A stretch of DNA of 64,000 nucleotides. Origin: Tubulanus polymorphus. Lineage: Eukaryota; Animalia; Nemertea. Position 1 is the first letter of the stretch, and each line of letters opens with the position of its first letter. This document shows positions 5,117 to 60,000 of this stretch, one piece after another. Made by a program: the position numbers and the translations under genes. The DNA is taken from the NCBI RefSeq assembly GCF_964204645.1, contig NC_134027.1, positions 12,122,485-12,186,484 on the forward strand. The letters run 5' to 3'. Under the pieces are notes generated by a model. That model was not told the DNA's origin and ran no database searches. It was given only the letters and a program-made list of their open reading frames with translations.

Positions 5117-5829
5117 ACATGGCTTCACACTCATGTTTTGACGAAAAGTTAAGGCTTAGATTTATCGATTGTTTTTGGTTCTCTAACCAATCTAATAACT
5201 AGGACCAAATCAACTAACACAATAAAAGAAAGTACTGTAGGGGCTATAGGTTTACTGATCTCATTCTATCACAACAGTACTTAAAGGGAAAGCGACACTT
5301 ATAAGAGAATACTTAGTGAACAGGTTAATCATAATTAACTTACATGAATAGATAATTAACTAGTATGTTGCAATGCCACATTTGTCTCCCCGGGGTATGA
5401 CCTTTTGGTTCTCTACAGTACCTCTTATACAGAATGCATTTTCTACAGGGAACATTCACGGAACTAATCTTCTTGTTTGTTTCATGATGATTAGAAAGGT
5501 ACTTCTAGAATGATGATCTCAAAAACTGCCTGGACATTTTACCTATAATCTACTTTTAACCCTTTCAGGACTCGGCTTTATATTGCTGATACCCCAGAAG
5601 TAATTTCGTGAAAAGCATGTAGCTTCAATACCAGATGGCAGCACCAATGGGTTTAATTTGAACTCATGTTGAAAATTAAATTTTTTGATCTCTTACACTT
5701 AATTCTAGTCAGGAAAATAAACGTTTATCTTGTCAATCAACTATTTGATATATTCTGTTAATCATTAAAAAAATTTTGCGGAGAAAATAAATTATATCTC
5801 ATCTCAAGAAGATAATAAATGATTTTTAC

Positions 5830-34849: not shown

Positions 34850-36912
34850 CCTGCAGTTTTCCTATTTCCAGATTCCATTTTCTCTTCTCAAAATCAAGAG
34901 TTTCCACCACATGAACTCATTTCGAGACATATTGATTCGCTTAATTTCATCTTGTGACAAATCTTGCGTATCGTAGATCTTCTGCATTTCATCTTTTTCT
35001 TGCATTGCTCGAACTATTTCCATTTCTAAACACAGTTCAAAAAGAGCGTTGATAAATTCAAACCTTCAGATGATATGATCTTCGATACATGGTGTTAGAT
35101 AGAAATATCATGTGATATATAAAGGGTCACATAGAGAACATGGATGCCTCGATGTGCATATTTTGAGTGAATTAAAAGCTATGTTTAAGGTTACAAGCTA
35201 TGTTGGGTAAGGGGTGGTTACATACCAATGTTTTCTTTTTGATGCACAAATCACGGAATTCTTTATCTTTTTCAAACTGTCTTCTATTGAGCTCTTCAGT
35301 CTGATCGGTCAGTTGTTTTAATTCGACTTGGTATTTATTTCGCGTGGCCGTCAGATATTCAAGATTATCCTGAATCATTTACAATATTGAAAACTCTATT
35401 AACTTGATCAGTTCAACGGTCATTGTTTAGGTTTCTTTCTCTCTTGAAGGAAATTGGTTCATTTTTCCCTCATTTACAAATTATCTGAGTTCTTTTTATT
35501 TTTCCAAGATATATAATACGAAATTCCCCGAGTAAATCTGCTGCAGGTGATTGGGGAAATTTCTTCACTTATCATTAAAAATGTTTTATTGATGTGATAA
35601 TTAGAATTCACTGGTTCATTCTCAAGATTGTTTGAGTCTTGTTTGAGTCGGACTCTTTCGATTTGTAGTGATTTAAAGTTCATCGGTTTATCATCGTGTA
35701 AACATTCTGTGAACATAAAATGATGAATTTTTAAGATACGCACAATAAACATTTAAATGGAAAAAAACATAAACTTGAAACTTACCTTGTTTTTTTCTGT
35801 AAAGTTCATCCTCCTCGACAAATTCACCTTTTCCATCCTTGAACGCCTTGTACGTATTGATGAAGTACTGATATCTAATCAACAATCATTCAACAGATAT
35901 CTATGAGGTGAATTGATATGAAGTTATTAAATTCACTAGAACCAAAATGATCTATGACTGGTCTTGAAGTATTACTAGCCCCAGGAGTTCTATCTAAAAG
36001 TTTTTTTTTTACGAACCAGTTCTTCAGTTTCTGAATCATCAAATCTATCATTTCTTGAGAACATCATTTTGAAAATATCGAATTGAAAAGATGACTTGAA
36101 ATAAAAGGCATAAAAAAAAAAAAGAATTTTTGTTGAACGACTAAATAAATAAAGAGTATATTGAATCTACACTTACTTCAATGTAATCACCGAGCCAGGA
36201 AAGTGCGCCGAGTAGGTGAGGCCAAACATGAGGTGCTCGCACAGTGAATAACATGTTCTTCGATATAAGAAATGGATACCCGAGATCCTTTAGCAGACGT
36301 GGTATCTGCTCTTCGTGTTTACTGTCTAGACGAAATTTGGCATCGACGATTTTCAACATGAACTGAAAAATAACGAAGAAATAAATCATTAAGTGATTTT
36401 CTATAAGAGGATATTTGAACGCGTAATAAATACCTAAATGATTTTGAGGAAATCTTTAGTAGTCGGAGAATGTAAGATCTTCACGCTGAGTTTTTTGCGA
36501 ATCACCTTTTTTCAGACAGAAACTGAAAAATAAATCAGAATGTAATTGAGAAAACTTTAATGACCGATCTGAAACAAACAGGAATTTGCAACACTAAACA
36601 TTACTGGATAAAGTTTCCACAGGTTTCTTTAGTTTGTATACAGATTTGAATTTGTTCATTTCCATTTTTTAACCCTCGTGTCAAATTCTACCCACGGAAC
36701 TGCGGAACTTGGTATTAATTACTAGGAGCATAGATGCTATAATTGGGTAATTAACAATTACCATCAATAAAGATTAAGAATTCTCGTGTGTTGTATGTGA
36801 TATATTTACCTCAATAAATCTTCTGATACTTAGTTCTTTAAAGGAGCGATCGCTGAGGTGTCTCGGATCTTTCATCGCGTCACTTTTAGATCTTCCATAC
36901 ATTCTACTACGA
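34850..36912 (-). pseudogene. NDC80: Kinetochore protein NDC80/HEC1, degenerate multi-exon copy
   Basis: Exon 36810-36912 gives MKDPRHLSDRSFKELSIRRFIE; next exon gives FLSEK..LSVKILHSPTTKDFLKI with frameshifts and a stop; exon ~36175-36363 gives EEQIPRLLKDLGYPFLISKNMLFTVRAPHVWPHLLGALSWL (Ndc80 CH domain); coiled-coil exons continue to ~34850. Confidence 0.82.
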
Positions 36913-36989
36913 CTGTTAATTCAAAATTTCAAATGTTACGGTTTTTTCAAATTGTCACCGCTGATGGTAAAGTAGGTAAAATATCAATG

Positions 36990-37080
36990 AGTAATTGGAA
37001 AAGTGGGCTTTCAGATCAGAGGACGAGAGGACGAGACACCACTCATCACCACAAGTAATTTCTTTTCCTAATAAATGGGA
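36990..37080 (+). repeat. Left terminal inverted repeat of the Polinton
   Basis: Perfect match to the reverse complement of 53254-53325 over ~72 bp; imperfect extension to the first ATG. Confidence 0.95.
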
Positions 37081-37400
37081 GATAGAAAAGCATTCTTAGC
37101 AACAATTAATAACAGAATAAAACCAGCAAAAAACAATTTGAAATAAAAAAGTTAGTTGATGTAACAAAAGAAATTGAACATAAAATATTGAAATTAGAAA
37201 AGATAGAAACTAAATATGGAGAGAAAGTATCCGCTAATTTAAGCTACTGTAATGTTAGTACATCGCGAGAATTTAAAGTATTTTTACCTGATAAATGGGT
37301 TTCATTGAGTACAGAGGAATTAAAAGATTTAGAAGGATTTAAAATAATCTATCATGGAAAAAATGAAGATGGCCATCATGATTTAGAAATTGTTGATTAA
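37075..37400 (+). CDS. Small Polinton protein, possibly an OB-fold ssDNA-binding protein; frameshift in an A-run at ~37130
   Basis: TAAATG start at 37075 joins ORF 37188-37400 (ETKYGEKV...KVFLPDKW) with a 1-nt shift; the fold assignment is a guess. Confidence 0.5.
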
Positions 37401-37561
37401 ATTTAAAAAAATAAATTAATAAAAATAATGAATATTAAGAATCCGAAATAACTTATCTGGACAATTTAATTGCTCCGCATAGATAGACAAAAGTAGTGAG
37501 ATATTCAATTAATATTCAATTAATTAAAAAAAAATTATTTTTTTGCTTTTTTTCTAAAATA

Positions 37562-37915
37562 TTAATCCATTTTTTTTATTGTCAATTTTGGAATTTCAGA
37601 ATTATTTTCATTTTTGATAGCAGTTGTTTCAGAATTATTAATATCATGAATTTTATTTGATTTCTTATACCAATTACACCCAATCAAAATGAATACAATT
37701 ACAAATCCAACTGTAAAATATAGACATTTATCAAATATTCTATTATTAGAAGGAGTAGAAATAACAATATTTTCACCATTTTTATTAACATTTTTATTAC
37801 TTATTTTTTCTTTTACAGCTTTTTTATATTCTTGTGATTTAATTCCTAATTGCCGAGACCATTCAATTTGTTTCTGTGATCTCGGTTTTTTCTTCACTTC
37901 TTCCACCTCGCTCAT
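37562..37915 (-). CDS. Polinton membrane protein, unknown function
   Basis: TAAATG start; one TM segment LYFTVGFVIVFILIG. Confidence 0.75.
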   Translation of the reverse strand: MSEVEEVKKKPRSQKQIEWSRQLGIKSQEYKKAVKEKISNKNVNKNGENIVISTPSNNRIFDKCLYFTVGFVIVFILIGCNWYKKSNKIHDINNSETTAIKNENNSEIPKLTIKKMD

Positions 37916-38438
37916 TTATTATAGAAATATTTTTATTTTCAATATTTGAAAATGTTATAACCCCAGTTGATAATAATGTCATAAATCCACCTAATTGAAA
38001 TGATAAATATCCAATCCATTTATTTAATTCAGTCATAACTAAATAATCATTTTTTAAATCGGAATATAATCTATTTTCATCTTCAATTGGTAGTATATAA
38101 TTACATAATTTACTATAACCTTTTACTACATTTTCTGATATCGCGTCATTAATTCTAGCTGTTCTCGCGGCTTCATAAATCTTAAATAATCTGATAATTT
38201 CATCTGATTTCATTGTATCTAATTCATTATAAGTTAAATTTTTACATTTTCCAGATGCTATTAATATTTCTAATTGATGTTTACAATAAAGATAATATTC
38301 ATAATTATTATTTGTTGTAACATTATTTAAAGCACCATCATCTGGAATTAATTTGTTTTCTGTTATTCCTAAATCATCTAAAGTTTTTTCAATTGGAACA
38401 TCACCATTTTTAGATTTTATTTTCATTTCACCTACCAT
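37863..38438 (-). CDS. Polinton protein with hydrophobic C-terminal segment, unknown function
   Basis: TAAATG start; WIGYLSFQLGGFMTLLSTGVITF. Confidence 0.75.
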   Translation of the reverse strand: MVGEMKIKSKNGDVPIEKTLDDLGITENKLIPDDGALNNVTTNNNYEYYLYCKHQLEILIASGKCKNLTYNELDTMKSDEIIRLFKIYEAARTARINDAISENVVKGYSKLCNYILPIEDENRLYSDLKNDYLVMTELNKWIGYLSFQLGGFMTLLSTGVITFSNIENKNISIINERGGRSEEKTEITETN

Positions 38439-38469
38439 TTATATAACAAAAAAATTATTTGTGATGTTG

Positions 38470-38742
38470 CAACTAGAATTCAACTAGAATGTTACTAGAA
38501 TTCAACTAGATTAACAAGCTAGTTGAAATATTGTTGTTTTTGTTTATTTCTTGTTAAATCTAGTTGATTTTTGTTCCAACTACCAATAACTCGAATTCAA
38601 CTAGAATGTAACTAGAATTAAACTAGATTAACAAGCTAGTTAAAATATTGTTAAATCTAGTTGATTTTTGTTACAACTACCAATAACTAGAATTCAACTA
38701 GAATGTAACTAGAATTCAACTAGATTAACAAGCTAGTTGAAT
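38470..38742. repeat. Non-coding CTAG-rich tandem/inverted repeat array inside the Polinton
   Basis: About 3 units of caactagaattcaactagaatgtwactagaattmaactagattaacaagctagtt. Confidence 0.85.
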
Positions 38743-39351
38743 TTAAATAAATTCATATTTAAATGGGTGTTGTAATCTAAATAGTAATTTTGATCTTTTA
38801 ATATTTTTCAACTTATCCATATATTCATTATGTAAATCATGTGGAATTATATCATTTTCCTCAAGTGCATTTTTCATCGATTTTCTATCTTTATTGTAGA
38901 ATAAAACTAGAAATCTAATGTTTTCTCTAAAGTCTTTAACAATTGAATTATATTTTTGATTTAAAACCCAAGTTGTTATCCCAAAATGTCTGCCAGAAAA
39001 AGCTAAATAGCATAACTCACTTTCTCTAACTTTTGAATCATGTAGACTAGCACAATCATCTATAATGAATAATGTATTTGATCCTTTATAAATATCAATT
39101 GCTATTTTAATACAATTATCTAAATTTTCTTCTACTGTTTTAGGATCTAATATAATAAATTTATTATTTCTAGTAATATTTCTATCATAAGTTTGATTAA
39201 ATTCATATGTTGGGCAAAATAATACTATATTATCAAAATAGTTTTCATAAACAGTTTCTAATAAATTTAATATAAAATAAGTTTTTCCACAATTTGTTAC
39301 GCCAGATATTAACATATTATGCGGCTCAAATATAAATAATTCTTTATTCAT
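38743..39351 (-). CDS. A32-like (FtsK/HerA) genome-packaging ATPase
   Basis: Walker A ISGVTNCGKT, Walker B LFIIDD, GRH motif, VLNQ. Confidence 0.92.
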   Translation of the reverse strand: MNKELFIFEPHNMLISGVTNCGKTYFILNLLETVYENYFDNIVLFCPTYEFNQTYDRNITRNNKFIILDPKTVEENLDNCIKIAIDIYKGSNTLFIIDDCASLHDSKVRESELCYLAFSGRHFGITTWVLNQKYNSIVKDFRENIRFLVLFYNKDRKSMKNALEENDIIPHDLHNEYMDKLKNIKRSKLLFRLQHPFKYEFI

Positions 39352-40477
39352 TTATATATTTTTAATTTTACTTGATAATATCCATTCATTGAATTTATCT
39401 GGCCATCCAACCCATTTTACTAAAGAATATTTTTTTCTTTTAATAGTTTTTGTTTTTAATACTTTTTCAATTTTATATTCTTGTTCTAGATTTTCAGTAG
39501 TTAAACTTAATTCTTCTTCGTAAAAGTAGCCATCAACTTCTTCACCATCTAAATCTTCTAATTTATAGACATATGGTTTTGTTGTTATTACCTTTTTTAT
39601 TTTATATATTTCTCTAGTAAAATTTCGATCGTATCCTTTATCAAATATCTTTTTATATCTTTTTATAACATTTTGACCAACTTTAAATTTAGGTTCACCT
39701 AAATCATCTACAAGAAATGCTCCATATAAATTATTCCAAACAATTTCAGCATTTTCAGGTTTTCTAGCATCAATAGGTTTCATTCCAATAGAAGAATGAT
39801 AAGAATTATTATATCCTTCTATCAATTTTGGTAAAACATCAATCCATTTAAAAGTATTATTTGCTGTAAAATATTTCCACATTCTTGTTCTTAATGTTCT
39901 ATTAAATCGTTCAACAACTGCTGCTTTTTTATCTGATATTGTTGAAAAATATCTAATATTATGATTGTCTAAGAGTTCATGAACAAGTGAATTATCAAAT
40001 TCTTTTCCATCATCAAATTGTATTTTTTCTGGTTTCAGTTTATCATCCGAAAGAAATTTTCTTAAAACATTTGATGTTTGTACAGCATCTTTTCTATAAA
40101 GTGGGAAGCTCCATACATAACGACTAAAAATATCAATTATATTCAATAACCACCAATAATCATCATTATCTTTCTTAACATTTTTCATATCAATTAAATC
40201 TCCTTGCCACTGTTGATCTACATAACTTACCATAGTTTTACGAGTTTTATATTTTCTAACAATTTTTTTATGTGTTGTGTATGTTGGTTGTTCTAACATA
40301 AATTCATTTATATCTTTATATTTAACTAAATTTTGTGGGATTATCTTATCTAATTTATCTTGTTTTACTTGACGCCATATATTTTTGGTAGAAGAAAAAG
40401 CAACCGAACTCTCAGGGTTGTAATATAAATTTCTTAAATATTGTTCTTTAGTATTAGGAGTTTTTTTTACCACCCAT
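39352..40477 (-). CDS. Retroviral-type (rve) integrase with C-terminal chromodomain
   Basis: WQGDLIDM, IDIFSRY, FDDGKEF, KAAVVERFNRTL, YNNSYHSSI, YKIEKVL..VKWVGWPDKFNEW; true start is probably TAAATG at 40477 with a 1-nt indel in the 40461-40468 homopolymer. Confidence 0.95.
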
Positions 40478-40507
40478 TTATATATCCTTAATTTTAACCT
40501 TATATTT

Positions 40508-41764
40508 CTAATATTGAACATTATCTAATTGTGAATTTACAATATCTAATTATGCGTCAGATATAATATAAATGTGCATTTTAAAATTTTTGATTCCTTT
40601 ATTCTTTGTCATGAATAATTGTATTCCATCTTTAGTGTTCTGTGATTTCTTCCCAGAACCATGTAATGAATTATCCTCTGTTGTTCTAAAATCTAACCAT
40701 AATGCATATTTATTACCGGTATAATAATCAATTTGATTAATGTTACAATTTTCAGATGATTTCACTTTTTCATTCATAAAATGTTTTCTAATTTCTGGCC
40801 ATTGATCAATCATTCTCATTCCTTGACAAAATATTTTATTTGCTATTCCTTCGATAGTTATTTCTACTTTTGTTATTTCAGGATTATAATAATTATCTAC
40901 CTTTATTGCTCCATTAGAATATGTTGCAATGGTAAAAAATATTAATATACCTTTAATAGATCTTCTTGGGAAGTTAATATTCTCATTAATTATTTCATCA
41001 TTTGCATTAATAGTTACAGTTTTAAATTTACTAATATAATCATATAATAATGAAAATCCTTGATTGTATTGAGTTTGAATTTTGCTAGCAATATTTTCAT
41101 TAGTTACTGTGTCATATTCTAAACATATATTCGATAATTTATAACCCATATCTTTAACAACGCTAGATAATACAATTTCATTTACAGGAGCAAATGTTAT
41201 CTCAAATATAATATCTTCTTGAATTGCGTATTTATATAAAGGTGCATTATTATTTATCAATTCAAAGTAATTATCAATTAATGGAATTTTATATTTGCTT
41301 CCATAAATCTTTTTAATCAAATTATCTACAGCATTAGTTACTATTGCGTCATTAGCTCCTGATCTTAATTTATTATGGTTTTCCGATTGAATACCCTGAA
41401 ATATCATATTATTTCTATTTTCTTTAGTTAACCATAAATCTTTATAATGCATAAATAAATTATAATCATCTAATGAGAATACTTTTTCTGGACCAATCTT
41501 TATTGTTAACTTTTTAATCAAATATCTTCCAACATTATCAACAACATAATTATTATCATTACCGGTTACTTGTATATCGGCTGATAATAAAATACTATTT
41601 GGAACATAAAAAGTATTTTGTGTTAATCGAGGAATTCTAACGTATAAAGTTTCATCAGGATTAATATTAGAAGGGTTATGAGTAATTATATGATGAGATC
41701 TTTCTGCTTTAATAGCATTAGATATTCTATGATTCTTAGAAGGATTGATATAACTCCCACTCAT
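40508..41764 (-). CDS. Major capsid protein (divergent double jelly-roll), premature TAA at 40550-40552
   Basis: ~417-codon beta-rich ORF next to the integrase and ATPase; reading through the stop gives IISDA*LDIVNSQLDNVQY; assigned from size, pattern and context. Confidence 0.72.
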
Positions 41765-41784
41765 TTATTTAACAAAAAAATTAA

Positions 41785-43209
41785 TTATTTATTTTTTATC
41801 ATGTTTACTAGCCCAAAAATAATTGCACTTACAACTGTAATTAAAAATAAAATAATATGTTCAGCAGCAAAGTTAATAATGTTTCCTGCAGATTTCAATA
41901 TGAAACCAACAATTGATGCAATAACTCCTGGTAATGCTGCAGCAGATTTTTTAGATAGTTCCCATAAATATTTTGCTAATTTCTTTAAACCATCCTTAAC
42001 TTTATCTTGTATAGAATTATTACCTGGGGGTTTATCTGGTTTATTGGGAGTAGGAGTAGATTTCAAAGCATTAGATATTGCTAAACCTATTGTTGTAAAT
42101 AACATAGTTACAGCTGTTAGAATTGAAAGAATTGTTATTCCTTCAAATTTAAATAATAATTCTATTCTATCTTTTAATGATATTTCAGAATTCGGTTTAA
42201 TCAACAAATCTTTAAAAATAACTTTTAATCTATTTATATTATAATCATATGATTTTAACAATAATTTAATTTCTTCTTTCTGTACATCTAAATTATCTTT
42301 TAAATTATTAATTTGTTTTTCTAAACGTAATTCTTTTTGCCTATATTCTATTTCATCAATTACTTGATGATCTAAATCAGACTTTAGTTGTTCTATTTCT
42401 TTATTTGCATTAGTTAATTCTTTTTCCAAATACATAATTTTTTGATCTCTTATACTTTTATTATGTGCAATTTTATCAGCTTCATTTCTTATACTAATAA
42501 TTTCTCTAATTGCTTCATCAGAAAATATATTTAAATCTTCTAATTGTTGATCTGTTGCATCAATTAATCCATTCGGTAAAAGTGTTTCAATTGAAACTTT
42601 ATTTGATTTAAGTTTACTAGTTTTGGAAGTTATATTCTGTTCAGATGTTGTTTCTGTTTCTGATTTCTTTTTGATTATTTCAAATAATTCATTAATTCTT
42701 TATTTAAATACGTCTATATCATTATCAGTTAATTCTTGTTTTATAACATCAGTTATTACATTACTATTACTAATTCTTTTAATTCTATCTGGATCTAATT
42801 TTCTCAAAGTTAATTTTGTTATTATTTTTTTTTTATAAGTGATATCAATATAATAATCATCTTTCAAACGATAATAACATTTACCATTATCTAAAAATTT
42901 TAATTGATCTGCTAAAAGTCCAACGTCTTCATCATTTATGTTAAGTTTAGATTTTTCAATTAAATCTTCTAATTTAGGTATTTTGTTTAAATTATCTAAA
43001 TCTTGTTTTACTAAACCTGGGTCTAAATTTTCAGGATTTAATTGTGATTCTGCATTTTTAATATAATCGGGCATATTTAAAGTATTATTATATCCTGGCT
43101 CATTACCGTCATTAGAACTTGTTTCACTAAAATCAGGTTGTTGTTCATCAGTTATGCCAGGTTCATCAAAAGGATCCATTCCAATATGTTCTCCACCTTC
43201 TACATCCAT
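41785..43209 (-). pseudogene. Coiled-coil protein with C-terminal TM helices, broken by an in-frame stop (~42700) and a frameshift
   Basis: ORFs 42700-43209 and 41785-42435 are bridged by an open frame ~42436-42680; a single TAAATG start at 43209. Confidence 0.7.
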
Positions 43210-43225
43210 TTATATAATAAAAAAA

Positions 43226-44524
43226 TTAAAATTTAAAATATAATATTCCTCCTATAACAATTCCTATATAAGTTAAAGCTAATTTAGTATTTTCATGTAA
43301 TTTATTATCATTATCAGTTTTAATTATATCATGTTGAATATCATCAGTTTTAATATTTTCTGTAGTATTATAATCCGGTTTAGAATCATTATTTAATTTA
43401 ATATTTTTAGTTTTAGTTTCTGTTGATTGAATACGTTTTTTATTTTTTTCACCTTCCATTAATTTTGGAGCAGTGATAATCTTTTTATTTATATCATTCA
43501 ATCCAAATGAATTATTTATTGTTGCGGTTTTAATTAGATTATTATAACCAATTATGTTTCCCATCTTTAATACTAAATCATTAGAAATAATAAATAGATT
43601 AGGGCCTATACAATAATTTAATCTAATATGTGATTTATCTAAATAATTTTGATATCTTACAATGTTTTCCGGAATCGATCTATTTTTATCATTATGAATT
43701 GAATCTTCAAATAATACTTTGAATTGTTTCTGCGCATCGAATGAAGTGTTATCATTTCCAATTATTGGGGATCTTGTTTCAACTTGCGCACCTAGAATAC
43801 ATATCAAATAAGTTCTAATAGATTGATTTATTCTTTGTATACCTGATTTTGTAAAACCTTCACCATTTTCTAAAATGAAATTAACCCAACCATTATTATT
43901 ATCAATGTTATAATTATGATAAGCTGAAATTCTATGCATATAATCAATTCTTTTTATTTCAAACTCTTCACCAACACCTTGCAATTTACCATGCGCTCTA
44001 AAATCGGAATTAATATTTATATTAAATTCATTACATATTTTATAAAACTTAGATAGATTAATATTATTATCCAATTCTTTAAAATATTTAGACCCGGGTA
44101 AAGGACATTCTAATTCATTTAATATTATTCTGATTTGAAAATATGTGTGAAATCTAAATATTGTGTGAATTAATTTTAAATCAGAATACTTCAAATTTTT
44201 ATCTAAGTTATTTAAATGATCATTCCAACTTATTCCGCATCCTGTTGTTGCACAATAAACAGCAAAATCTAATTGGTTCTGCCAATATTTCATATTAGAT
44301 TTTACTTTATATATATGATATTCATCTCGAGTAAAAGTAACTTCATATGTATTAAATATATTTTCCATTTTAGAAATAAAAAACTGTGATTCAGTAACAT
44401 AAATTTCTAAATTAGTTAATGAATTTAAAACTACATTTTTATATGTAATATTTTTTTTTAAATCTATTGCAGGAATATTATATTTAATTGATTTATTATA
44501 TTGGAAAGCTTTTGGAAACCCCAT
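43226..44524 (-). CDS. Polinton protein with C-terminal TM anchor, unknown function
   Basis: 432-aa ORF, TAAATG start, AVYCATTGCGISW motif, terminal ALTYIGIVIGGILYF. Confidence 0.8.
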   Translation of the reverse strand: MGFPKAFQYNKSIKYNIPAIDLKKNITYKNVVLNSLTNLEIYVTESQFFISKMENIFNTYEVTFTRDEYHIYKVKSNMKYWQNQLDFAVYCATTGCGISWNDHLNNLDKNLKYSDLKLIHTIFRFHTYFQIRIILNELECPLPGSKYFKELDNNINLSKFYKICNEFNININSDFRAHGKLQGVGEEFEIKRIDYMHRISAYHNYNIDNNNGWVNFILENGEGFTKSGIQRINQSIRTYLICILGAQVETRSPIIGNDNTSFDAQKQFKVLFEDSIHNDKNRSIPENIVRYQNYLDKSHIRLNYCIGPNLFIISNDLVLKMGNIIGYNNLIKTATINNSFGLNDINKKIITAPKLMEGEKNKKRIQSTETKTKNIKLNNDSKPDYNTTENIKTDDIQHDIIKTDNDNKLHENTKLALTYIGIVIGGILYFKF

Positions 44525-44540
44525 TTATATAATTAAAAAA

Positions 44541-44975
44541 TTAATAATTAACTAATTCTTTTAATAATTTATCTTGTTCTTCAACTGTTATATGGCCATT
44601 TAAATTTATTATATAATCTAGTGTATTCTTTAATTTATTAATTTCTTTTATATTAGTTTTAATTTTTTCTTTATTACTTTTTATATTTAATTTTGAACTT
44701 ATACCAGTTAAAACACTTGAACTTAATCCTAATACACCAATTGATATAGCTAAAGGTGTTAATGGACTGAATATTGCTAGAAATGTTATTAGAGAACTAA
44801 TTGTAACCGAACCACTTATAATCAAATAATATATAATTTTACTTTTTAAATATTTTTTCTTTTTTATCTTTAAGTCACTTTCAAATTCTAATATTTGTTT
44901 TTCTAAATATGTTTTTAATTTAGTTTTATTTATATCATGAGGAATAATATCAATATTATCAACTTTATCTTCCAT
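44541..44975 (-). CDS. Two-TM membrane protein
   Basis: TAAATG start; hydrophobic hairpin IIYYLIISGSV...AISIGVLGLSSSVL. Confidence 0.75.
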   Translation of the reverse strand: MEDKVDNIDIIPHDINKTKLKTYLEKQILEFESDLKIKKKKYLKSKIIYYLIISGSVTISSLITFLAIFSPLTPLAISIGVLGLSSSVLTGISSKLNIKSNKEKIKTNIKEINKLKNTLDYIINLNGHITVEEQDKLLKELVNY

Positions 44976-44995
44976 TTATTTAGCAAAAAAAATTA

Positions 44996-45418
44996 CTAAT
45001 TAGTAAACTTATAAGCAACAAATATAACAATAACTGTTCCACCTAAAATCAAAATTATTTCATATTTCTTCTGTTCATTACTTGGGGTATAATAATCTGA
45101 TAATTTAGGTTTGTATAGATGTAATTTTTCTTTATTGGTTTCCGCGTTATATAAACTCATTGCATCATCAACTGATTGAAAATCTCTGTGTGAAATCTTC
45201 TGATCATATAATTCTTTATTGATGTAATCCATATAGTTTTGTCTCTTTTCTCTATATTCTTCAGCTGCTTTATTGTATTTCTCTAATGCTAAGGTATGTC
45301 TTTTTTGTTCTGTAAATGAACCATTTTTATCAATATGCTTGAATAAATAACCACCACCAGTAAATGCTAAAGCGTTAACAATTGCCGATCCTATAATAGT
45401 TATAATTGCAGAAGCCAT
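44996..45418 (-). CDS. Membrane protein with N- and C-terminal hydrophobic segments
   Basis: TAAATG start; IITIIGSAIVNALAFTGG and IILILGGTVIVIFVAY. Confidence 0.75.
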   Translation of the reverse strand: MASAIITIIGSAIVNALAFTGGGYLFKHIDKNGSFTEQKRHTLALEKYNKAAEEYREKRQNYMDYINKELYDQKISHRDFQSVDDAMSLYNAETNKEKLHLYKPKLSDYYTPSNEQKKYEIILILGGTVIVIFVAYKFTN

Positions 45419-45442
45419 TTATTTAGTAAAATAATTACGCAT

Positions 45443-45664
45443 TTATATGGGAGGAATATATTTTTGTTTTTCCAAATAATCAATAGTTAAATTAGATAAA
45501 GTAACTGCTAATGTTAATTTTAAGAAATCATTTATATCAAATCTATCAACATTAACACTTCCCATTTTGAATACTTTTTTTAATACCATTGAATAACCAA
45601 CTGTTCCAACTGATAGTAATGCGCCATTATATAATCCAGTTATTATCCACTTATTATCACTCAT
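45443..45664 (-). CDS. Small hydrophobic Polinton protein
   Basis: TAAATG start; tightly packed with its neighbours. Confidence 0.65.
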   Translation of the reverse strand: MSDNKWIITGLYNGALLSVGTVGYSMVLKKVFKMGSVNVDRFDINDFLKLTLAVTLSNLTIDYLEKQKYIPPI

Positions 45665-45667
45665 TTA

Positions 45668-46021
45668 TTAATCAAAAAATTTACTATCTTCAAAATATTT
45701 AGTTATCTTAGTGATGATTATTTCAACATTTATTTTATTACTAGTTTCATTTGTATATATTTCAATTATTATTTTTTTAATATCATCGATGATAAAATCT
45801 TCATCTAATTCATAAAATCTTAAAGATTCTCTAATTAAATTAGTAATCTTTTCTACATTTAAAGTTTCTTTATCTATTGTTTTTTCATACTCAAATGTTG
45901 TTTCATTAGAAAATGCAATATTTTTAATATGTGTAATTACATCATTAATGTTAAATTTCATTTCTTTCTTACGTTTAAAATCAAAACCAAAACATATACT
46001 CGGTCCTACTGTTATATTCAT
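45668..46021 (-). CDS. Polinton protein, unknown function
   Basis: TAAATG start; tightly packed with its neighbours. Confidence 0.65.
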   Translation of the reverse strand: MNITVGPSICFGFDFKRKKEMKFNINDVITHIKNIAFSNETTFEYEKTIDKETLNVEKITNLIRESLRFYELDEDFIIDDIKKIIIEIYTNETSNKINVEIIITKITKYFEDSKFFD

Positions 46022-46037
46022 TTATATAGTGAAAAAA

Positions 46038-46796
46038 TTACTCTTTACATCTTATAACTAATTCATAAATTACGGGGAAATTATTTAAATCAATTAAGTG
46101 CCCATTATGATTTCTTATTTCTAATTTAAAATTATTAAATTGAGGAATACAAGGTTTAAAATCACATTCAGCTAAATTATAATTTATTTGCGTTCCAAAT
46201 TGTTTGACATTTTTCAATGGTAAAATATTTAATATACTAGAATGACAAATTGTATCTTTAGTTGCTTCAAATGTTTTTGTAGGATCGATTAAATTGCAAT
46301 AAATATAGAAATGTGTGTAAGGTATAATATTTGAATTACCGTCTACGTTTCCTGTAACAGTTTGTGGTTTAATTCCTAACAGTTTAGCTAAAGGTTTCCT
46401 TACCATAAATGCATGTTTGCTTTCATCATCTAACTTTATTTTGATTTTATCAGAACTATCACTTTTTATAAATTTAATTGAAAATTTATCTTCACTTTTA
46501 AGTTTTAATCGTGCTTTCCGATTAATTTCTTGGGCTAATGTTTCTAAATTATATAACCCTGGTTTTAACATTAGATAAAACCATTTATTTTTATTTTTCA
46601 TATGAATTGCAAAACCTCTATGTTCGAAAGTTTTATCCGATATATTATAAAAAGAATTACATAAACTTATATTTACTAATTTTAAATCTACACAATTCTT
46701 AAATTCTCTATTTAATTGAACTAGTAAATTATGTGATTTATAATTTGTAAGTTTTCTAGAATCAACAAATATTCTGTATTCTTTTAATTCTACCAT
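46038..46796 (-). CDS. Minor capsid (penton, single jelly-roll) protein
   Basis: IFVDSR..., NSFYNIS, LKPGLYN, FYIYCNLI, LEIRNHNGHLIDLNNFPVIYEL pattern typical of Polinton/virophage pentons. Confidence 0.8.
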   Translation of the reverse strand: MVELKEYRIFVDSRKLTNYKSHNLLVQLNREFKNCVDLKLVNISLCNSFYNISDKTFEHRGFAIHMKNKNKWFYLMLKPGLYNLETLAQEINRKARLKLKSEDKFSIKFIKSDSSDKIKIKLDDESKHAFMVRKPLAKLLGIKPQTVTGNVDGNSNIIPYTHFYIYCNLIDPTKTFEATKDTICHSSILNILPLKNVKQFGTQINYNLAECDFKPCIPQFNNFKLEIRNHNGHLIDLNNFPVIYELVIRCKE

Positions 46797-46864
46797 TATT
46801 TATAACATAAAAAAATTACCGCTCATCACTAAAAATCAATTTTAATAAAATTTTTCCTAAATAA

Positions 46865-48182
46865 ATGGATGAGAAGATAGCATGCGAAATTTGTGGTGAA
46901 CTTCTAAGAAAAAGTAATATGGCTCGACATATGAAAAAACATGATGAAAATTATAAACCCCCTAAACTAAACTGTCCAAAATGTAATAAATTATTCTCAA
47001 GAAATTATGTTAAAAAAACATTCAAAGAAGTGTAAAATTAATGGCGCAACGGCTAATGTTGATAGTAATGAAAGTAATAGTAATTCTGTTGAAGTTGAAC
47101 CTGAAGGTATTTGGAAAAGACCTTTCTTATTCTATGATAAGGATAATATAAAAGATCATATCTGTGAGCCTTGTCAAGTAAAATATAGCCCTGAAAATAT
47201 AGAAGATTGGGAGAATCATCAATTTCGTAAAGCACATATAGATAAAATTTCTAATAAATTTGAAACTGAATTCAATAAAAGAAAAGATAATTTATTAGAA
47301 AAAATAAAATATGAGAAAACGTTACCAGATAATAAAGAAACAGTTGAAAAGTTAGAAAAACAATATAATGAATTAACAAGAAAAACATATCATTGTAAAT
47401 ATTGTAAATTGATTATTAAAACAAGTAATTCAAATCTACATAATAGAACAATAAAACATAAAGAAAACGTAAGAAAATACCAGGAACTTAATGAAGATCT
47501 ATTACCAATAAATTATAAACGAAAATGTCCACAATGTAGTTATGCGACCTTAAGACAAGAAGGTACTGTGTTATTTTGTAATGAATGTGGATGGCAAAAG
47601 AATTTATGGAGTGAAGAAAAAACTAAAAATTTTCTCATAGATCCAAAATTAAATTATCTAGATGAAATTTTTAAAATATTTTCTATAGAAGATCATACAC
47701 CAGAATATATGCAATGGCTTGAAAAAATGAAAATAATAGAAAATAAAAATGGTGAAATAACTAAAAAAGATATTATAAAAACAATTATTCCGTCAACATT
47801 TAACACAAAACAAAAGAAAATGTATTTATATTTATTATTTAACGATTATTATGAAAAACCTAAATTAACAGAAGAAGATATGAAAAATATAAAAAAAATA
47901 TTCAAACAAATATTAATGTATCATTTGGAAAATAGAATAACAGATTCAATAAATTATGAATTCTTTTTAAATAAGATTGTAAATTATTTAAACCTAGATA
48001 TTATAATTCCATTTGATGAATTAACAAACAAAAAGAAACAAAGAGAGCGAGATGAAATGTGGAACAAGATAGAACTTTATTTAAATGAGAAAAATGAAAT
48101 GGAAGAAGAACCTAAACAATTAAATGAAAATGAAGAAGCCAATAGTGATTTCGAGAATGACGATATTGATTTTATGTTTTAA
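46865..48182 (+). CDS. Zinc-finger protein with C-terminal poxvirus A2/VLTF-3-like late transcription factor domain; frameshift in the A-run at ~47012-47018
   Basis: TAAATG start at 46865 (CEIC..HMKKH, CPKC); CPQC-x13-CNEC ribbon, KNFLIDPKLNYL, IKKIFKQI..SINYEFFLNKI..DEMWNKI match vaccinia A2 as recalled. Confidence 0.78.
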
Positions 48183-51100
48183 TGACCATAAGGTAATGTT
48201 TTTATACCATCATCTAAAATATGCCTTTTATCATCAAATGGATTCAAACTAGTTTTTTCAACTTCATTAATGTATATCTCGTGATATTCTGATCTTAAAC
48301 AATTCATTTTGTGTTTCATTACAATTGAGTTATATAAACACTTTATATAATCTTGAAATTCTATATGTTTATCAACCACATGTTTTGTTATTCCTTTTAA
48401 CTTTTTAGCTTCATGATCTTTTGTTCTATAACTATGCATTTTACTTCTTATCCCAACAAATTCAATCATTTCATCACCCCCTAATTCATCTTTAAACTTA
48501 CCAGGAATCTTTTTATTATCATTGCTAAATAGTTCATGATCTTTGGGATAATTGCTAAAATCAAAATGATGTTTTAATGTTTTTAAGTCTTTTGTTATAT
48601 CATTTGTCTTGATTTTTAGTATATACGCATCCGTATTGAAGCAAATTAATGGAAATCCACAGTTAAATAAACCATCTTCAGTTGATAAATCATAAACATA
48701 ATCTGATGGGTTATGTATTTCAAATAAATCTTTAACCTCTTCAGTTAAATCTTTTTCTGTGTGGCTTAGCTTAAAGCAATTTGGTTTAGATTTAATCAAT
48801 CCAATATTCATATTGAAGCCTAATGAATTACATAATATATTTAACCCTGATATAGCAACTTTTCCTTTCTGTGCAAAGGTTATCTTTTTATCTTTTGTAA
48901 ATTTTTTAGCACCATCTGCTGCATAGAATCCAATGAAGAACCATTTTCTTAAATTATTTTTTGCATTTAATACATAATCTGGAACTATCTTTTCTTTTGT
49001 TGAAGTATTACTTTTCACTATTGCATGAATATAGAATTCATCATTATATTTTATAGCAAAATCTTTAGGATTATTTATAAGTATTCTATAAACTGCTGAT
49101 GATTTCATAACATCCATGATTCTAAATGTTTTATGTGAATAAACTTCTTCACAGAATTTCTTAATTCTTTCTAATAATTTTAAGTCTTGATTGCATAAAT
49201 ACCAACAATATTTATTACCCCAAACATAATTATACACACCTGCTGAACCATCTCCCATGAAAAATCCTTTGATAAAATATTCTTTTTCTTCTAATGTTTC
49301 GGTTTCTATGTTATAAATATTATCAATTATTTCATCAAATGACATATGATTCATTCTTTGGAAAAATCTTTTATGTAATAATTCATCTCCAATTTTTATA
49401 TCAGTTGGTTTTATTTCATTACCATTTCGTTTAATTAAACTATGATCTTCTGTAACATCTACAAACCCTAATTTAGTTCTAACTCTATAAATTTTCTTAT
49501 TTGTTTTATGCCTAATAATATTCTTTAATTTTTTCCATCCATTTCTTGTCCAAACATCCATTAAACCATTTATTTGTATTAATTCTTTTTCACCATATGA
49601 AATATAACATTCATTTTGTTTTGGAATTATTTCTGAAATTCTTCTTACCAATATTTTATTATTACATTTTAATAATATTGGGGTGTCAGCTGTTACAGAA
49701 TCAAAATATAATATTTCAATATGCTTTTCCCCAAAAAGTGGTTGTAAAACATTATAATAAAAATCATACATTAATAATTTTGATACTTCTAAAACAGTTG
49801 AACCAATGAATATAGGTTTATCAAATTTCATTGACGTTCTTTTTAATTTAACTGCTGTTAAATAATCTTCAAATCTTTTATTTCCTAAATGTCTAGGACT
49901 TGATTGTAAATGTCTTAATCTTTCAGAATTATTTACTAATTCAATATCATTTCTATTTCTAATATTTTCACATGTTTTACAATAAAAACTATTGTTCATT
50001 AATTTAAAAAAATCTTTTTCAAAATCTGTTTTTGATATGGTACTCTGTTGAGTATTAAAATCTATATATTTTTCTAACCACTTCGATTGATTAAATTCAA
50101 TATATCTATGTACTTTCTTTAATTTCATTCCTTGTTTCAGATAAAATTTTAACATTCTATAATGAACAATATAATTGTATTTATTATTTTGAGTAAGTAT
50201 TAATTTTTCTGTAAAAACATGATCTTTCGGTTTTATTTTCTTCTGGTATTCACTTAAATAACTATCATCTACAGTTAAATGTTCTGGGCAATAAGGTAAG
50301 TTTCTTGTTTTAACCTTTATATTTTCAGGATATTCTAAATCAACTACAAAGAAATAACCAATTGGTGCTTCATCTTTTAAACTCGCAATTGCGCTTTCCC
50401 AATCAGTTTTATCATCATTTTCAACTTCTGTTAATATAAAATTTTTATATGGTTGAGGTTGCATCATTGCCCAACCATATAAATTATTGGTGTCAATATA
50501 TAATAATTTATATTAATCATTTGCTGTAAAATACCTATCTCCCATAACACCACTAATTCCACCTCTAATTGATTTTTCAAATAATAAAACCATATCTGGT
50601 TCTTTTAATAAATCTAATTCTACATTTGTATATTTTAAACCACATTGCCAGGTTAAACCAGGACTTGAATAACAATAACAAGGATCAACATTAAAATGAT
50701 TCAAATTAACTTCTCTAAATTTTTCAAATATGTCAGCCAATATCATAACATCTGATTTTAAATATAAATCAACTAATTCACCATGATTTTTCATCTTAAA
50801 ATGGTTCCAAATATTTAATTTTCTATTAAACACTTCGTCTTTCACATACTCCTCTTTTAATTGATCATAAAATTGATCTTTTAATAATTCTGTTACATTA
50901 AAATCATTGTGTGTTTTATAAAATGAATAAGGAATTGCGCCTTTATATCTCAATAATTTAAAATCTTGTTCATTTGGATAATAATATCGAGTTATAACAA
51001 AATCATTATCAACTAAACTTTTTGATAAATTATCTAATGAACTTGCTAGAAATCTATAAGAATCTAAAAATCTAATGCAACCAAATTGAAATGAAATATA

Positions 51101-53241
51101 ATTTTCAGATGTTTTAGCTAATAGTTTAAAATCATATTTTCTTACATTTACACCATTCATAGCATTATATTCTTCTATTTCTTGATTAATTGTACCCAAT
51201 TTCTTTGATAATTGTTTTATAAATAGATGGGTATCATAGCCTGATAAATTATGAAATAATATTGGTACGAAATTAACTTTCTTAGCTTGTAAATTGCAAT
51301 CTTCATGAGCAGCTCCACGATATTTTGAATTTAAATGATCATGATCTCTAACTTTTTTATCAAATGAATAAAAACGTTTTTCACAATAACAACAATGAGT
51401 TGCATAATTAAAATCAATTTCATCTTCTTTTGTCATAACTATTCTTTTATTTTTGTTTAATAATTTTGCAAAATCACTTTCTAATTCAATCATTTTATCA
51501 CAAAAAGCATTAACTACATTTTCACCTCTAAAAAAATATATTGACTTTCATATAATTCGGGATAATTTGATTTGATGTAAATTCCATAAGCAGCAGCTCT
51601 TTGATGAACTTTTTTAATTGTATTTATAATTGGTGGGTCTTGTATTGTGTCTTCATTTAATTCATTTCCTTTATCCATTGATTTTAATAATTGCTTTTTG
51701 TTATATATTTCTTTTCTATCTTGATCAGTTAATTCTTTATTCAACGATTCAAAATCCCCATAAATTACAAATGGAACAATATTCTTAAATTTATGATTAG
51801 TAAATTTCAATTTATAATCTTTTTCTGTTGGCATTATTAATTTGCAAAAATCTTTATTATCACATAATTCTTTATGTTTTAATAATGTATTCTCTGTCAT
51901 AAATTTAGATAAACATTTTCTACATAGATAAATTTTATGATGATGATCACTTTCTGTTCTAAAGAATAAATCAATTTGTTTTAACCACATATAATGTTCA
52001 TTTTCATCTTTTTTGTAATATAACAAATCTATAGCATTTTCATCATCATAATATTCTGTTAAATATAAAGCTTCCAATGTATAATCTTTAATATTTTCAC
52101 CTTTTGTCTTTGGTAATTGCATTAATTCAAATACATTTATTTTTAACTTATTAATTTTTTCTATTTTGGGTATCATTTTTATAGTTACTGGATATTGATC
52201 AATTTTATATAATGTTTCATATTTCCGATAATCTGTTATTCTACAAACATTTTCCTGTGTTGGATGTGAACAACTAATAATTGACCATAGAAAACATTTA
52301 TTATCTTCATTTTGAACATTTATTACTGCTTTTGTTGTAAATGGTAATTTAATATAAGATGATGCTTTAATATCCTTTTCTGTTGTAAAGTTTGAATCAT
52401 TTTTAAACATTTTATTACTTTTTGATGTTTTATTCCTTATTGTATTGTAAACATTTAAATCTAAATATATAATTTCATTCAATGTTAAGCCAGAACCCTC
52501 AAAATATCTTTCTTCAATATGACGTTTAAATTCATTGAATATTTTTTCTAACTTCTCTTTTATTTGCGTTTTTGAAATTATTTCTTCAGAGAGTGTTTGA
52601 ATATTATAATCCATTTTTTCTTCTGACTTTATAAAACTTACTTTCCCAGAGATACTAATTTTTGGATATTCAACATCTGTTATCAAATCTAGTATTTTTT
52701 CTATTATTTCATTAAATTTACTATAATCTTCTATTGTTGTACCTTTAAAAAATCTAAATATAATAGCTGCAGGACCAATTTTACTATGTAATGTTTCTAA
52801 AATTTCAATTGTATCTTTTATTTCTAGTGAATCAATATAATTTCTAACATTTTCCATGTAAGGTTTATTTGAAATGGATTTAGTTTTTGAATTTGGTTTT
52901 TTTACTTTTTGAGGTTTATCGTTAAAATAATCTTTTCCTAAAACATTATTACTCAAATTTTGGTGGTGTTTTTGTGATTCGAGATGTCTATTATAATTCC
53001 TTTTTACTATAAATTCATTACAAACTTCACATTTTATTTCATCCACATTCATATTTTCTAATCTTTCTTTTCTTTCATTGGAATTTTCTGGAGTTTCAAA
53101 ATCTATTACATTTTTTATATGATTTGCAGTTTTTTCATGTCGTGTTTTATTAGATCTATCCACGTATTTTTTACAATATGTGCAATAATATTGATTTTTA
53201 TTAACATTATTGTTTTCTGGCTGGTGTTCATTCTCCCCCAT
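48179..53241 (-). pseudogene. Protein-primed family B DNA polymerase (pPolB) with intein; one frameshift (~51530) and one in-frame TAA (50513-50515)
   Basis: YGDFES (exo I), FHNLSGYD, FLDSYRFL, YLKSDV, YIDTNNLYGWAM (motif A, read through the stop), KLMNNSFY.K (motif B), YFD/TDA (motif C split by the intein), GKFKDE, KLKGI, DDKR. Confidence 0.95.
48635..49699 (-). mobile_element. Intein (355 aa) with LAGLIDADG homing endonuclease inserted in pPolB motif C
   Basis: YFD|SVTADTPILL...VTEDHSL (block B TxxH)...FIKGFFMGDGS...FFIGFYAADG...YVYDLSTE...LICFN|TDA; removing it restores YFDTDA. Confidence 0.95.
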
Positions 53242-53325
53242 TTATTAGGGAAAAAATTACTTGTGGTGATGAGTGGTGTCTCGTCCTCTCGTCCTCTGAT
53301 CTGAAAGCCCACTTTTCCAATTACT
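53236..53325 (-). repeat. Right terminal inverted repeat of the Polinton
   Basis: Reverse complement of the left TIR; followed by TSD TCAATG. Confidence 0.95.
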
Positions 53326-53337
53326 TCAATGAACTAC

Positions 53338-54194
<857 letters not shown>

Positions 54195-57093: not shown

Positions 57094-60000
57094 ATGCCAC
57101 GTAAAACGAAAAGGCTTAAACAATTGTGCAGTGCCAGACAGACAGCCAAGGTATTAATTGTAATCTAGTAATAATATATTTAATTAATAAGCATTATTAT
57201 TCATTTTTTTTTAGACTTCAAAACTACACTTGATATTTTGGTTCATACTCCGCAACTATGTAAATGATATTAAATTTAGTTGCATTCTCTTGTAGGTTAA
57301 GGCACATACAGAACCAGAGCCGATAGCCAGCGATGCCAATCCATTGGAGTATCATCTCCACAAACAAAATGAGACTGAGGAGTATCCTCTCCCTAATAAA
57401 AAAAAGGAGTGTGTGGAGTATCCTCTCTGTGAAAAAAAGGAGTGCTTAAAGACATGCTCAAAGACATGCTTAAAGACATCTAAAGATTTTTGCTTGCCGA
57501 AACTCGTGAATGTATCTGATGCTTCTTCCTCAGAGAAGTGTATTAATACAGATAAATTCAGTAATGTAAGTTCAGAAATTGTTTCGAGATTCTCACCTTA
57601 TGCTATGTGCGTGAGAGGTCATTTTCACCAAGGTGATACAAAGTTATTTAGTGCATTATCAGTTGGAAACCAGTGTACATGTAATGCATTAGTCAGTCTT
57701 TGTAAACTACCATCTTTGAGTAGGGTAACAGCTAATGATATTGACCAGGTCCTCTTTCAAGGTGACTCTTTGTACATTAGTGTCAGAATGAATCAGTCCA
57801 ACAGATATTTAAGTTTTGATGAACTGCCATTATTTATACCAGTTGATAGACCTAAGTACAGAATAAATAGGCTTTCTAGCTACTATGTGAGTTATGACAA
57901 CATAGAAAAGGCACATGGGATATTTCATTCTCTTTGTGCTGCTATAACTCAATCATTATCTGATTCTATAACGGTTCTTGTCATGATTGGTGAATTTGCA
58001 ATAGCAATATACAGTTTAAGTGGAATGTATTTTGTATTTGATTCTCATAGTCGAGACAATTATGGAAACTTTGTTGATGACAGTACAGGTACAGCAGTTT
58101 TACTAAAGTTTCCTAACTTGGATGAAATAAAGAAGTATTTGAGATATTATATTTTAACCTGCTGCAGTCAACAGCATCGTTCTTGTGAATTTTTACCGAT
58201 CAAAATTGAAAATGTCGAGGAGAGTAAAAATGAATCTAGTCTAGCAAATTATGTATTCGATCAGAAGATAAAAAGACAGGAGTATATTCGTCTGTATAAG
58301 CAGAAACAGAGACAAGATGAGGCATTTAAAACAAATGAAAGAACTTGTAAACATAAAGCTAGAATGATCCCTGAGAAAAGAGCGAGTGAACAGATCCAAG
58401 GTAGACAAAGTAAGCAAAGAGCTAGAGCGATACCTGAAAAAAAAGCAGCTGATCAGCTTAGTAAGCAAAAAGCTAGAGCGACACCTGAAAAAAAGGCAGC
58501 TGAACGAATTCACAGTAGATTAAGTAGGCAAAGAGCTAGAGCGATACCTGCAAAAAAAGCAGCTGAACACCTTAGTAAGCAAAAAGCTAGAGCGACACCT
58601 GAAAAAAAGGCAGCTGAAAATATTCACAGTAGATTAAGTAGGCAAAGAGCTAGAGCGATACCTGCAAAAAAAGCAGCTGAACAGATTCACAGTAGATTAA
58701 GTAAGCAAAGAGCTAGAGCGATACCTGAAAAAAAGGCAGCTGAAATGATTCACAGTAGATTTAGTAAGCAAAAAGCTAGAGCGATTCCTGAAAAAAAGGC
58801 AGCTGAACAGATTTACAGTAGATTTAGTAAGCAAAAAGCTAGAGCGATTCCTGAAAAAAAGGCAGCTGAAATGATTCACAGTAGATTAAGTAAGCAAATA
58901 GCTAGAGTGATTCCTGAAAAAAGAACAGCTGAACAGACTCTGGACAAATTAAGGAAGCAAAAGAAACGAAATGAAAGCAGTTTCAGACAAAATGAAGTCA
59001 AACAAAAACGAAAGACTAGAGAAAGTGACCTATATAAAGAATTTGAAAGAGAAGCTAAAGCCGCAAAAAGAGCATTATTTAGAGAAAATGAAATAAATTT
59101 TGCGAATGCAGAAGATATCAGCTCTCAGTGTTCGACAAATTCGAATTTTGCTACCAAGCGAAAATGTGATTTAATGAAAGTCATTGATAAATTTCATGAA
59201 AAGATTTCAATTGGTCCAATATATGTGTGCACATGCTGTCACCAGACCTGGTTCCAACATTCAGCACAGAAATCTTCATTATTAACCTCTAAGTTATCTG
59301 ACAAACTAAAAGAAAAATGTATTACTGGAAAGATTTCAGTTAATGATGAACAATGGCTGTGTGTAACATGTGCAGAATCATTGAAAAAGAATAATGTGCC
59401 AAAGCTATCTGTGGCCAATGGATTGTCATTCCTGGAAAAACCAAAAGAATTGGAATTATTTCTTAGAATTCCTTTTATGAGTTTGTATGAATTACCGAGA
59501 GGTGGTCAATATCAGCTGCAGGGATCTGTTGTGAATGTTCCAGTTGACATTGCTCCGACTGTTCAGTCATTGCCAAGAAATGTTGACACAGCTGCTACAG
59601 TTCCAATAAAGTTAAAACGCAAGCTCAGTTACAAAACAGCAGTATTACAACAGAATGTTAGGCCTTTAGCTGTATTAGCTGCTCTACACTATTTGATGAG
59701 AACCACTCTGTATAAAAATGCAAACATAAACATTGATGAGAACTGGTTGAACACAGTTTGTGAAGAGCAAGGTATCATACCACCATCTGAACCTGAAAAT
59801 GATTATGCCAGTGATAGTGATTCTGATGCTTTTAGTGAAATAGACCCAGATGAGAATCCAACAGGAAATCAGGATACTATGTTAGATGAAGCAAGCATTG
59901 ATTCTGTAAGGGTTTTGACATATGCTCCAGGTGAAGGTCAGAAACCATTGAGTCTGTTCCAAGATAAAGATGCCGAATATTTATCATTTCCCACAATATA

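Follow-up and report, generated by a model that had tools for sequence, protein, structure and literature searches.

The window analyzed here is a 64,000-nucleotide stretch of the Tubulanus polymorphus genome (NC_134027.1, positions 12,122,485 to 12,186,484). It contains a Polinton/Maverick element of 16,336 bp (16.3 kb; 36990..53325), which harbors a gene encoding a VLTF3-like protein fused to zinc fingers. The left terminal inverted repeat (TIR; 36990..37064) is 75 nt long and begins AGT, and the right TIR (53251..53325) is 99% complementary to it. A 6-bp target site duplication (TSD) is present at 36984..36989 and again at 53326-53331, so that the TIRs beginning AG and the 6-bp TSD that characterize Polintons were both found. 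An inward-facing TAAATG adjoins the left TIR, and the TAAATG of the protein-primed PolB (pPolB) gene is the next feature inward from the right TIR. The GC content of the Polinton is 0.24 versus 0.38 in its flanks. The element sits inside an intron of the animal Ndc80 gene; parts of Ndc80/HEC1 (Pfam Ndc80_HEC, E = 2e-17) were recognized on the minus strand at 36180-36920 and 53326-53460. This intron is short and lies near the 5' end of Ndc80, with the insertion approximately 6 to 12 nt from the apparent donor site. Immediately upstream of the apparent first exon is a run of about 245 perfect CAG/CTG units (53459-54194). Elsewhere in the window we noted a remnant of a BEL/Pao retrotransposon (27119-28816, plus strand) and a Helitron carrying a Herpes_teg_N domain (57344-63888, plus strand).

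Pfam analysis of the element identified pPolB (48179..53241), an rve integrase with a chromodomain (39352..40521), and an A32 packaging ATPase (38743..39351; Pox_A32, E = 4e-13), all on the minus strand and all above the Pfam cut-off. The pPolB gene is in three pieces separated by two breaks. It encodes N-terminal U1-type fingers and a 355-amino-acid intein-like insert (48635..49699, minus strand), comprised of Hint halves and a LAGLIDADG domain, within PolB motif C. The first residue of the insert is Ser and the last is Asn, and the splicing ends still are recognizable; intein invasions of Polinton pPolB genes have been inferred from homing-endonuclease inserts (PMC11071308). A putative major capsid protein (40550..41764, minus strand) gave a weak Capsid_N match (E = 0.007) under the cut-off and is 74 to 75% identical to its counterparts in L323, L324, and L325. 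A two-TM gene (44541-44975, minus strand) has a weak SLATT match (E = 0.004) and 78% identity in L323. Between two of the element genes lies a noncoding array of short, partly palindromic repeated units (38477-38743). Among the 18 element open reading frames (ORFs) scanned, several of which still are unannotated, there was no Pfam match to a protease, and no RNA polymerase was detected in the element by Pfam. A profile search of 401 open stretches revealed no homologue of poxvirus A1 (best E = 0.3). The VLTF3-fusion gene is the sole long plus-strand gene of the element and is convergent with pPolB. A recent transfer of this gene alone was rejected, as its GC and GC3 agree with those of the other element genes.

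The VLTF3-fusion gene occupies two overlapping plus-strand frames, 46865-47035 (56 amino acids) and 47007-48182 (391 amino acids). The N-terminal piece encodes finger 1 (C2H2; Pfam zf-C2H2, E = 2.2e-6) and the first half of finger 2 (C2HC); the main piece encodes the end of finger 2, fingers 3 and 4, a zinc ribbon, the VLTF3 helical domain, and an acidic tail. The frameshift falls in the overlap of the two pieces and splits finger 2. The original prediction described about four N-terminal C2H2-like fingers. Four are indeed present, but only the first two are of the classical C2H2/C2HC kind; finger 3 (47163..47237, plus strand), which is conserved in two relatives (P0033 and P0037), and finger 4 (47394..47459, plus strand; Pfam zf-U1, E = 5.7e-5) are of the U1/matrin type (H-x5-H). 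In many cases, the ligand of such fingers is RNA or protein and not DNA. Finger 4 resembles one of the N-terminal fingers of pPolB (blastp, E = 4e-4) and finger 1 resembles the other (E = 5e-4), which suggests that the finger-VLTF3 fusion arose within the element. Downstream of the fingers are an A2-type zinc ribbon, CxxC-x13-CxxC (47526..47588, plus strand), and the VLTF3 helical domain (47604..48080, plus strand), which has a predicted cyclin/TFIIB-like fold. The tail (48078..48179, plus strand), with 13 D/E among 34 residues, is acidic and extends beyond A2, as had been proposed.

The identification of the C-terminal 200 or so residues as a homologue of the poxvirus late transcription factor A2/VLTF-3, originally made by eye, was upheld by profile searches. 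The C-terminal 95 residues matched Pox_VLTF3 (PF04947) with an E value of 2.5e-7 and 31 bits (cut-off, 25), and a 163-residue C-terminal piece scored 27.8 bits against the same cut-off. Pfam missed the domain when a 195-residue piece or the whole ORF was scanned, and A2L_zn_ribbon (PF08792) gave no match at an E value of ≤10. The domain is collinear with seven chordopoxvirus A2 proteins over approximately 190 columns at 22 to 23% identity, and identity to any poxvirus A2 is 22 to 26%. The CxxC-x13-CxxC ribbon, the KNF/SNF-to-KL.[HY]L block, the INY.FFL.KI motif, and the final W are all in register, so that the motif matches given in the original prediction were correct. Against a profile of 27 chordopoxvirus A2 sequences the domain scored 29.6 bits, whereas 200 shuffled versions peaked at 8.5, and chance resemblance to A2 was rejected. 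Of 30 matches in the ESM Atlas, 27 belonged to Pox_VLTF3 clusters, the best at 0.96; recognition was under the reliable range of that resource. When IMG/VR was scanned with a motif from the gene, the 120 matches listed included poxvirus A2 genes but not any other kind of VLTF3. Neither the ORF nor the domain gave a match in word-indexed protein searches, and a sequence search of the PDB gave nothing meaningful (best E = 0.015).

We modeled the structure from a 49-row alignment that included 20 poxvirus and 28 giant-virus-type rows (pLDDT, 82.5). Foldseek returned four matches at an E value of ≤1e-3, namely, cowpox virus A2 (TM score, 0.61), a 278-residue protein, and two entomopoxvirus late factors. 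Giant-virus VLTF3 proteins came next, from 1.5e-3, and African swine fever virus (ASFV) B385R had an E value of 0.45. Some circularity attends the match of this predicted model to VLTF3 in general, and less attends the ranking. When the model was built from the single sequence (pLDDT, 62), no Foldseek match reached an E value of ≤1e-3, yet several VLTF3 proteins ranked high. The best matches among solved structures were Orc6, cyclins, and TFIIB/Brf, with Z scores of 5.8 to 6.8 and root mean square deviations of 3 to 4 Å over 84 to 102 residues; Z scores below 8 are weak by the calibration of the tool. A literature search found no prior report of a link between VLTF3 and TFIIB.

In order to compare poxvirus and giant-virus affinity, 120 loci were listed for a giant-virus-type VLTF3 set, of which 77 were usable and were reduced at 75% identity to 27. 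On the giant-virus-type profile the domain scored 13.6 bits (shuffle maximum, 6.6), compared with 29.6 on the poxvirus profile, and pairwise medians were 29.1 for poxvirus and 9.6 for giant-virus-type sequences. A profile of three fusion domains gave medians of 50 and 15, respectively. Counting against poxvirus affinity, one giant-virus-type sequence reached 45 bits on the fusion profile, inside the poxvirus range of 41 to 57. A ribbon spacer of 13 residues was found in 27 of 27 chordopoxvirus A2 proteins and in none of the 27 giant-virus-type VLTF3 proteins; spacers are variable in more distant proteins, and one giant-virus-type match has 13.

Phylogenetic analysis placed the protein less simply. 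In a 42-row tree the query fell outside the chordopoxviruses, and its nearest rows by path were of the giant-virus type. In a 48-row tree, built from subsets of the two reference sets and leaving out P0038, P0059, P0061, and P0063 as fragments or short sequences, the fusion proteins formed a clade (support, 100/99) outside a poxvirus-containing clade (96/96) made up of chordopoxviruses, an entomopoxvirus, and further pox-like proteins; this placement carries a long-branch warning. Neither tree included an asfarvirus or egovirus sequence. Forcing the fusion clade together with the chordopoxviruses or with the entomopoxvirus-containing clade was disfavored but not rejected by the AU test (P = 0.055 and 0.063), and grouping with the basal proteins P0054, P0056, and P0057 was not rejected (P = 0.27). 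The VLTF3 domains appear to branch deeply on the poxvirus side, with the best tree placing the clade outside the sampled poxviruses. Approximately two dozen pox-type A2 proteins from public assemblies (P0034-P0058), many of which group with an entomopoxvirus, would represent a pool of undescribed poxvirus-like viruses.

A HMMER search of 1.84 billion representatives with a profile that included the query gave 35 matches, of which 33 were new. Two of these 33, P0033 (697 amino acids) and P0037 (446 amino acids), have the same four fingers ahead of VLTF3 in one frame, and all four fingers thus are kept in order in three lineages that share less than 50% identity. The finger 2 region is continuous in L323, P0033, P0065, and P0037. 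P0065, a cluster-mate of P0033 on a 16,883-bp contig, is 98.6% identical over 143 residues to a truncated ORF with which L323 ends, and because L323 is a Polinton with 14 ORF-level matches to the window element, P0065 is tied to a Polinton. The possibility that the fusion is an artifact of the window copy was rejected on the strength of the intact orthologues P0033, P0065, and P0037. L323 also carries a deoxynucleoside kinase gene (10340-10981, minus strand; Pfam dNK, E = 2e-31), which starts at a TAAATG and points away from the VLTF3-fusion gene of L323. VLTF3 was not found in the assembled parts of L324 and L325, and the gene order of L324 is unlike that of the window element. L324 encodes a 408-residue protein with U1-type fingers (2461-3687) and an HNH-like gene (5568-6083), both with TAAATG starts. 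No relatives were recovered when viral contigs were scanned for patterns of the domain, capsid, PolB, and integrase.

The original prediction drew attention to the frameshift at an A run. Raw reads from another individual (X5) indicate that the break is not common to most copies, since it was absent from 132 of the 194 reads at the site. Depth at the break was approximately 200 in 12% of the X5 run, measured without a single-copy control, and the element family therefore has many copies. We listed 40 differences between reads and window, with 141 more beyond these; 27 of those listed fall in reading frames. Among the listed differences, those nearly fixed against the window were 1 synonymous to 9 nonsynonymous, and those varying among copies were 8 to 9, where approximately 25% synonymous would be expected. 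pPolB and other element genes also are broken in the window copy. These sequence data are weakly consistent with the window copy being a decaying member of a family under selection, although an assembly error at the break site is conceivable. The window copy being broken, any function applies to the intact copies of the family. That the gene lies in a Polinton, that this copy appears to be decaying, and that VLTF3 in animal Polintons already has been published (PMC11131425) are all additions to the original prediction.

The element's TAAATG promoters, also predicted originally, were confirmed by counting. Fourteen gene starts were counted after short overlapping ORFs and the internal fragments of broken genes had been set aside. 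At 12 of them the ATG is part of a TAAATG, as against 40 of the remaining 643 ATGs (P = 3e-13), and at one of the 12 this TAA also is an upstream stop codon. T occupies each of positions -11 to -8, including -10, in 11 of the 12, and a thirteenth start has TAAATA with the same spacing. The late-type promoter of the VLTF3-fusion gene (46851..46867, plus strand) has a T tract at -11 to -7 and TAAATG over the start codon. When antisense, internal, and truncated ORFs were disregarded, TAAATG was found at 15 of 15 starts in L323 (T at -10 in 14; background, 5.7%) and at 7 of 7 in L324 (T at -10 in only 3; background, 4.3%). The genome-wide count of TAAATG was not enriched (100 versus 92 expected); only its placement at starts is. 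Counts of the T5NT early terminator were uninformative. In T tract and spacing these promoters match the vaccinia virus late promoter and consensus as described in PMC11980589 and PMC5294985, while the latter describes other promoter motifs for ASFV and mimivirids. The counts cover only the window element, L323, and L324, so TAAATG starts may be spread more widely than this lineage. An A-rich block also lies approximately 12 to 22 nt upstream of TAAAT in the window (46840-46861), at the starts 565 and 11054 in L323, and at the start 2461 in L324. It resembles the described core of intermediate promoters and possibly marks a second temporal class.

Initiation that overlaps the ATG leaves no 5' untranslated region, and the poxvirus polymerase adds one by slippage (PMC6211774). 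As transcripts initiated inside TAAAT would lack a leader unless poly(A) slippage supplied it, a poxvirus-like polymerase is the likely transcriber. Judged by its sequence, the element has two of the properties of a virophage: no RNA polymerase of its own was detected, and its promoters appear to be of the helper type. We consider it probable that the element depends on a putative helper virus. Our explanation, to which we give an even chance, is that the gene encodes the Polinton's own late factor, that the element lives as a virophage-like satellite on a poxvirus-like helper, and that the fingers tether the factor to element DNA. The helper's RNA polymerase would transcribe the element genes from the TAAATG late-type promoters, and the A2-like domain would enter the helper's late initiation complex. 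The four fingers would likely hold the factor on element DNA and so could bias the helper polymerase toward element promoters. The deoxynucleoside kinase of L323 was counted in favor of this explanation. Against it count the position of the fusion clade outside the poxvirus-containing clade, the U1/matrin type of fingers 3 and 4, and the lack of VLTF3 in the assembled parts of L324 and L325. The promoter of the gene itself also is of the late type, which does not account for the first activation of an integrated nuclear copy. A bolder form, which we put forward tentatively and judge somewhat doubtful, is that a lineage of animal germ line Polintons consists of provirophages of undiscovered invertebrate poxviruses. 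Each of their genes would be driven by the poxvirus late promoter, and their DNA-tethered, A2/TFIIB-like factor would redirect the helper polymerase to the element itself. If this is true, TAAATG promoters together with the VLTF3-fusion gene would flag hosts of unknown poxviruses.

Several alternatives bear on the identity of the helper and on the fingers. The basal tree position outside the sampled poxviruses, the identity of just 22 to 26% to any poxvirus A2, and the existence of the basal lineages P0054, P0056, and P0057, grouping with which the AU test permits, would suit another pox-side helper (for example, an egovirus- or asfarvirus-like virus) or an ancient, pre-poxvirus VLTF3 kept by the Polinton. 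We regard this as unlikely, as nesting within the poxviruses was not rejected either, ASFV B385R was a poor structural match, and the promoters follow the vaccinia virus late consensus, from which those of ASFV and mimivirids differ (PMC5294985). The four fingers are kept in order across three divergent lineages, and fingers 1 and 2 are adjacent and of the C2H2/C2HC kind, which argues against their binding RNA or protein (such as double-stranded RNA or pPolB/terminal protein) while the A2 domain merely supplements the helper's late factor. This reading, which is less likely again, draws on the zf-U1 type of fingers 3 and 4 and on a wide spacing unlike that of a tandem DNA-reading array. Similar fingers on pPolB and on another gene of L324 also favor it, since they suggest that the element uses such fingers as an all-purpose module.

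Two further readings we hold to be improbable, to about the same degree. An autonomous element might use a TFIIB-like factor to steer host RNA polymerase II to its promoters in the nucleus. The predicted ribbon and cyclin-type fold, with its matches to Orc6, cyclins, and TFIIB/Brf, and the many copies in the host genome are in keeping with this, but those Z scores are weak, and the promoter, in which the ATG lies within the initiator, reproduces the consensus of a viral polymerase. Alternatively, the protein might act as a dominant-negative decoy, impairing late transcription by the helper and protecting the host, as its strong divergence from poxvirus A2, its extra fingers and acidic tail, and a report of Polinton-like viruses (PLVs) that inhibit giant viruses (PMC12945077) could suggest. 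Such a decoy also would silence the element's capsid, ATPase, and polymerase genes, which share the late promoter, and the ribbon cysteines and core motifs are conserved.

It is debated whether animal Polintons live as transposons, as autonomous viruses of the nucleus, or as satellites of larger viruses, and a Polinton with its whole gene set on a poxvirus late promoter offers a direct, testable answer for one lineage. The promoter and gene signature could be used to scan other genomes. A satellite with its own version of the helper's core late factor would have a new way to compete for the virus factory, and the predicted ribbon and cyclin fold hints at the role of A2/VLTF3, which almost all large DNA viruses encode.

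VLTF3 in animal Polintons and PLVs associated with poxviruses already are in print. VLTF3-bearing polintoviruses are described in stony corals (PMC11131425, citing Krupovic and Koonin 2016), and MELD viruses have a "mimivirus VLTF3-like" gene (PMC8502044). Both are like the window element in having a VLTF3 homologue in an animal Polinton; poxvirus affinity, a zinc-finger fusion, and promoter analysis are absent from the relevant passages, and the word "promoter" does not occur in either main text. VLTF3 also is reported from protist PLVs (10.64898/2026.06.19.733378), while PMC11253617 treats it as confined to Nucleocytoviricota. The Polinton TAAATG promoter set and the finger-VLTF3 fusion apparently are new, no prior report having been found in the titles and abstract openings searched, which included few subscription papers. 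By the terms searched, the accessible text of 10.1101/2024.03.23.586382, PMC12220804, PMC11579359, PMC11071296, and PMC4542343 had no bearing on the topic. The entomopoxvirus-associated PLVs AHEV_PLV1/2, CBEV_PLV1, and Ca_PLV1 (PMC11296320) also are of the Polinton type and are proposed poxvirus hyperparasites in animals. They differ in having an adenovirus-type protease and either no detectable integrase or a tyrosine recombinase instead; "VLTF," "transcription factor," and "promoter" do not occur in the main text. The yeast cytoplasmic virus-like elements pGKL (PMC6211774) share with the window element a linear, pPolB-encoding genome and a poxvirus-like TAAA initiator, and their polymerases also slip, adding a poly(A) leader. 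They have genes for an RNA polymerase and a capping enzyme, neither of which was detected in the window element. The late motif of mimivirids is TCTA (PMC5294985).

Poxvirus A2/VLTF-3 itself (vaccinia virus A2L; PF04947, PF08792) is alike in its x13 ribbon, collinear helical domain, INY.FFL.KI motif, final W, and predicted fold (TM score, 0.61). The element protein differs from it in its 22 to 23% identity, four extra fingers, acidic tail, lack of an A1 alongside, and outside position in the tree. To our knowledge, Mavirus has no VLTF3 of its own. Mavirus and CroV differ from the proposed pair in having a protist host and a mimivirid helper, but Mavirus is an integrating element with pPolB and rve genes that uses the late promoter of its helper, as we propose for the window element.
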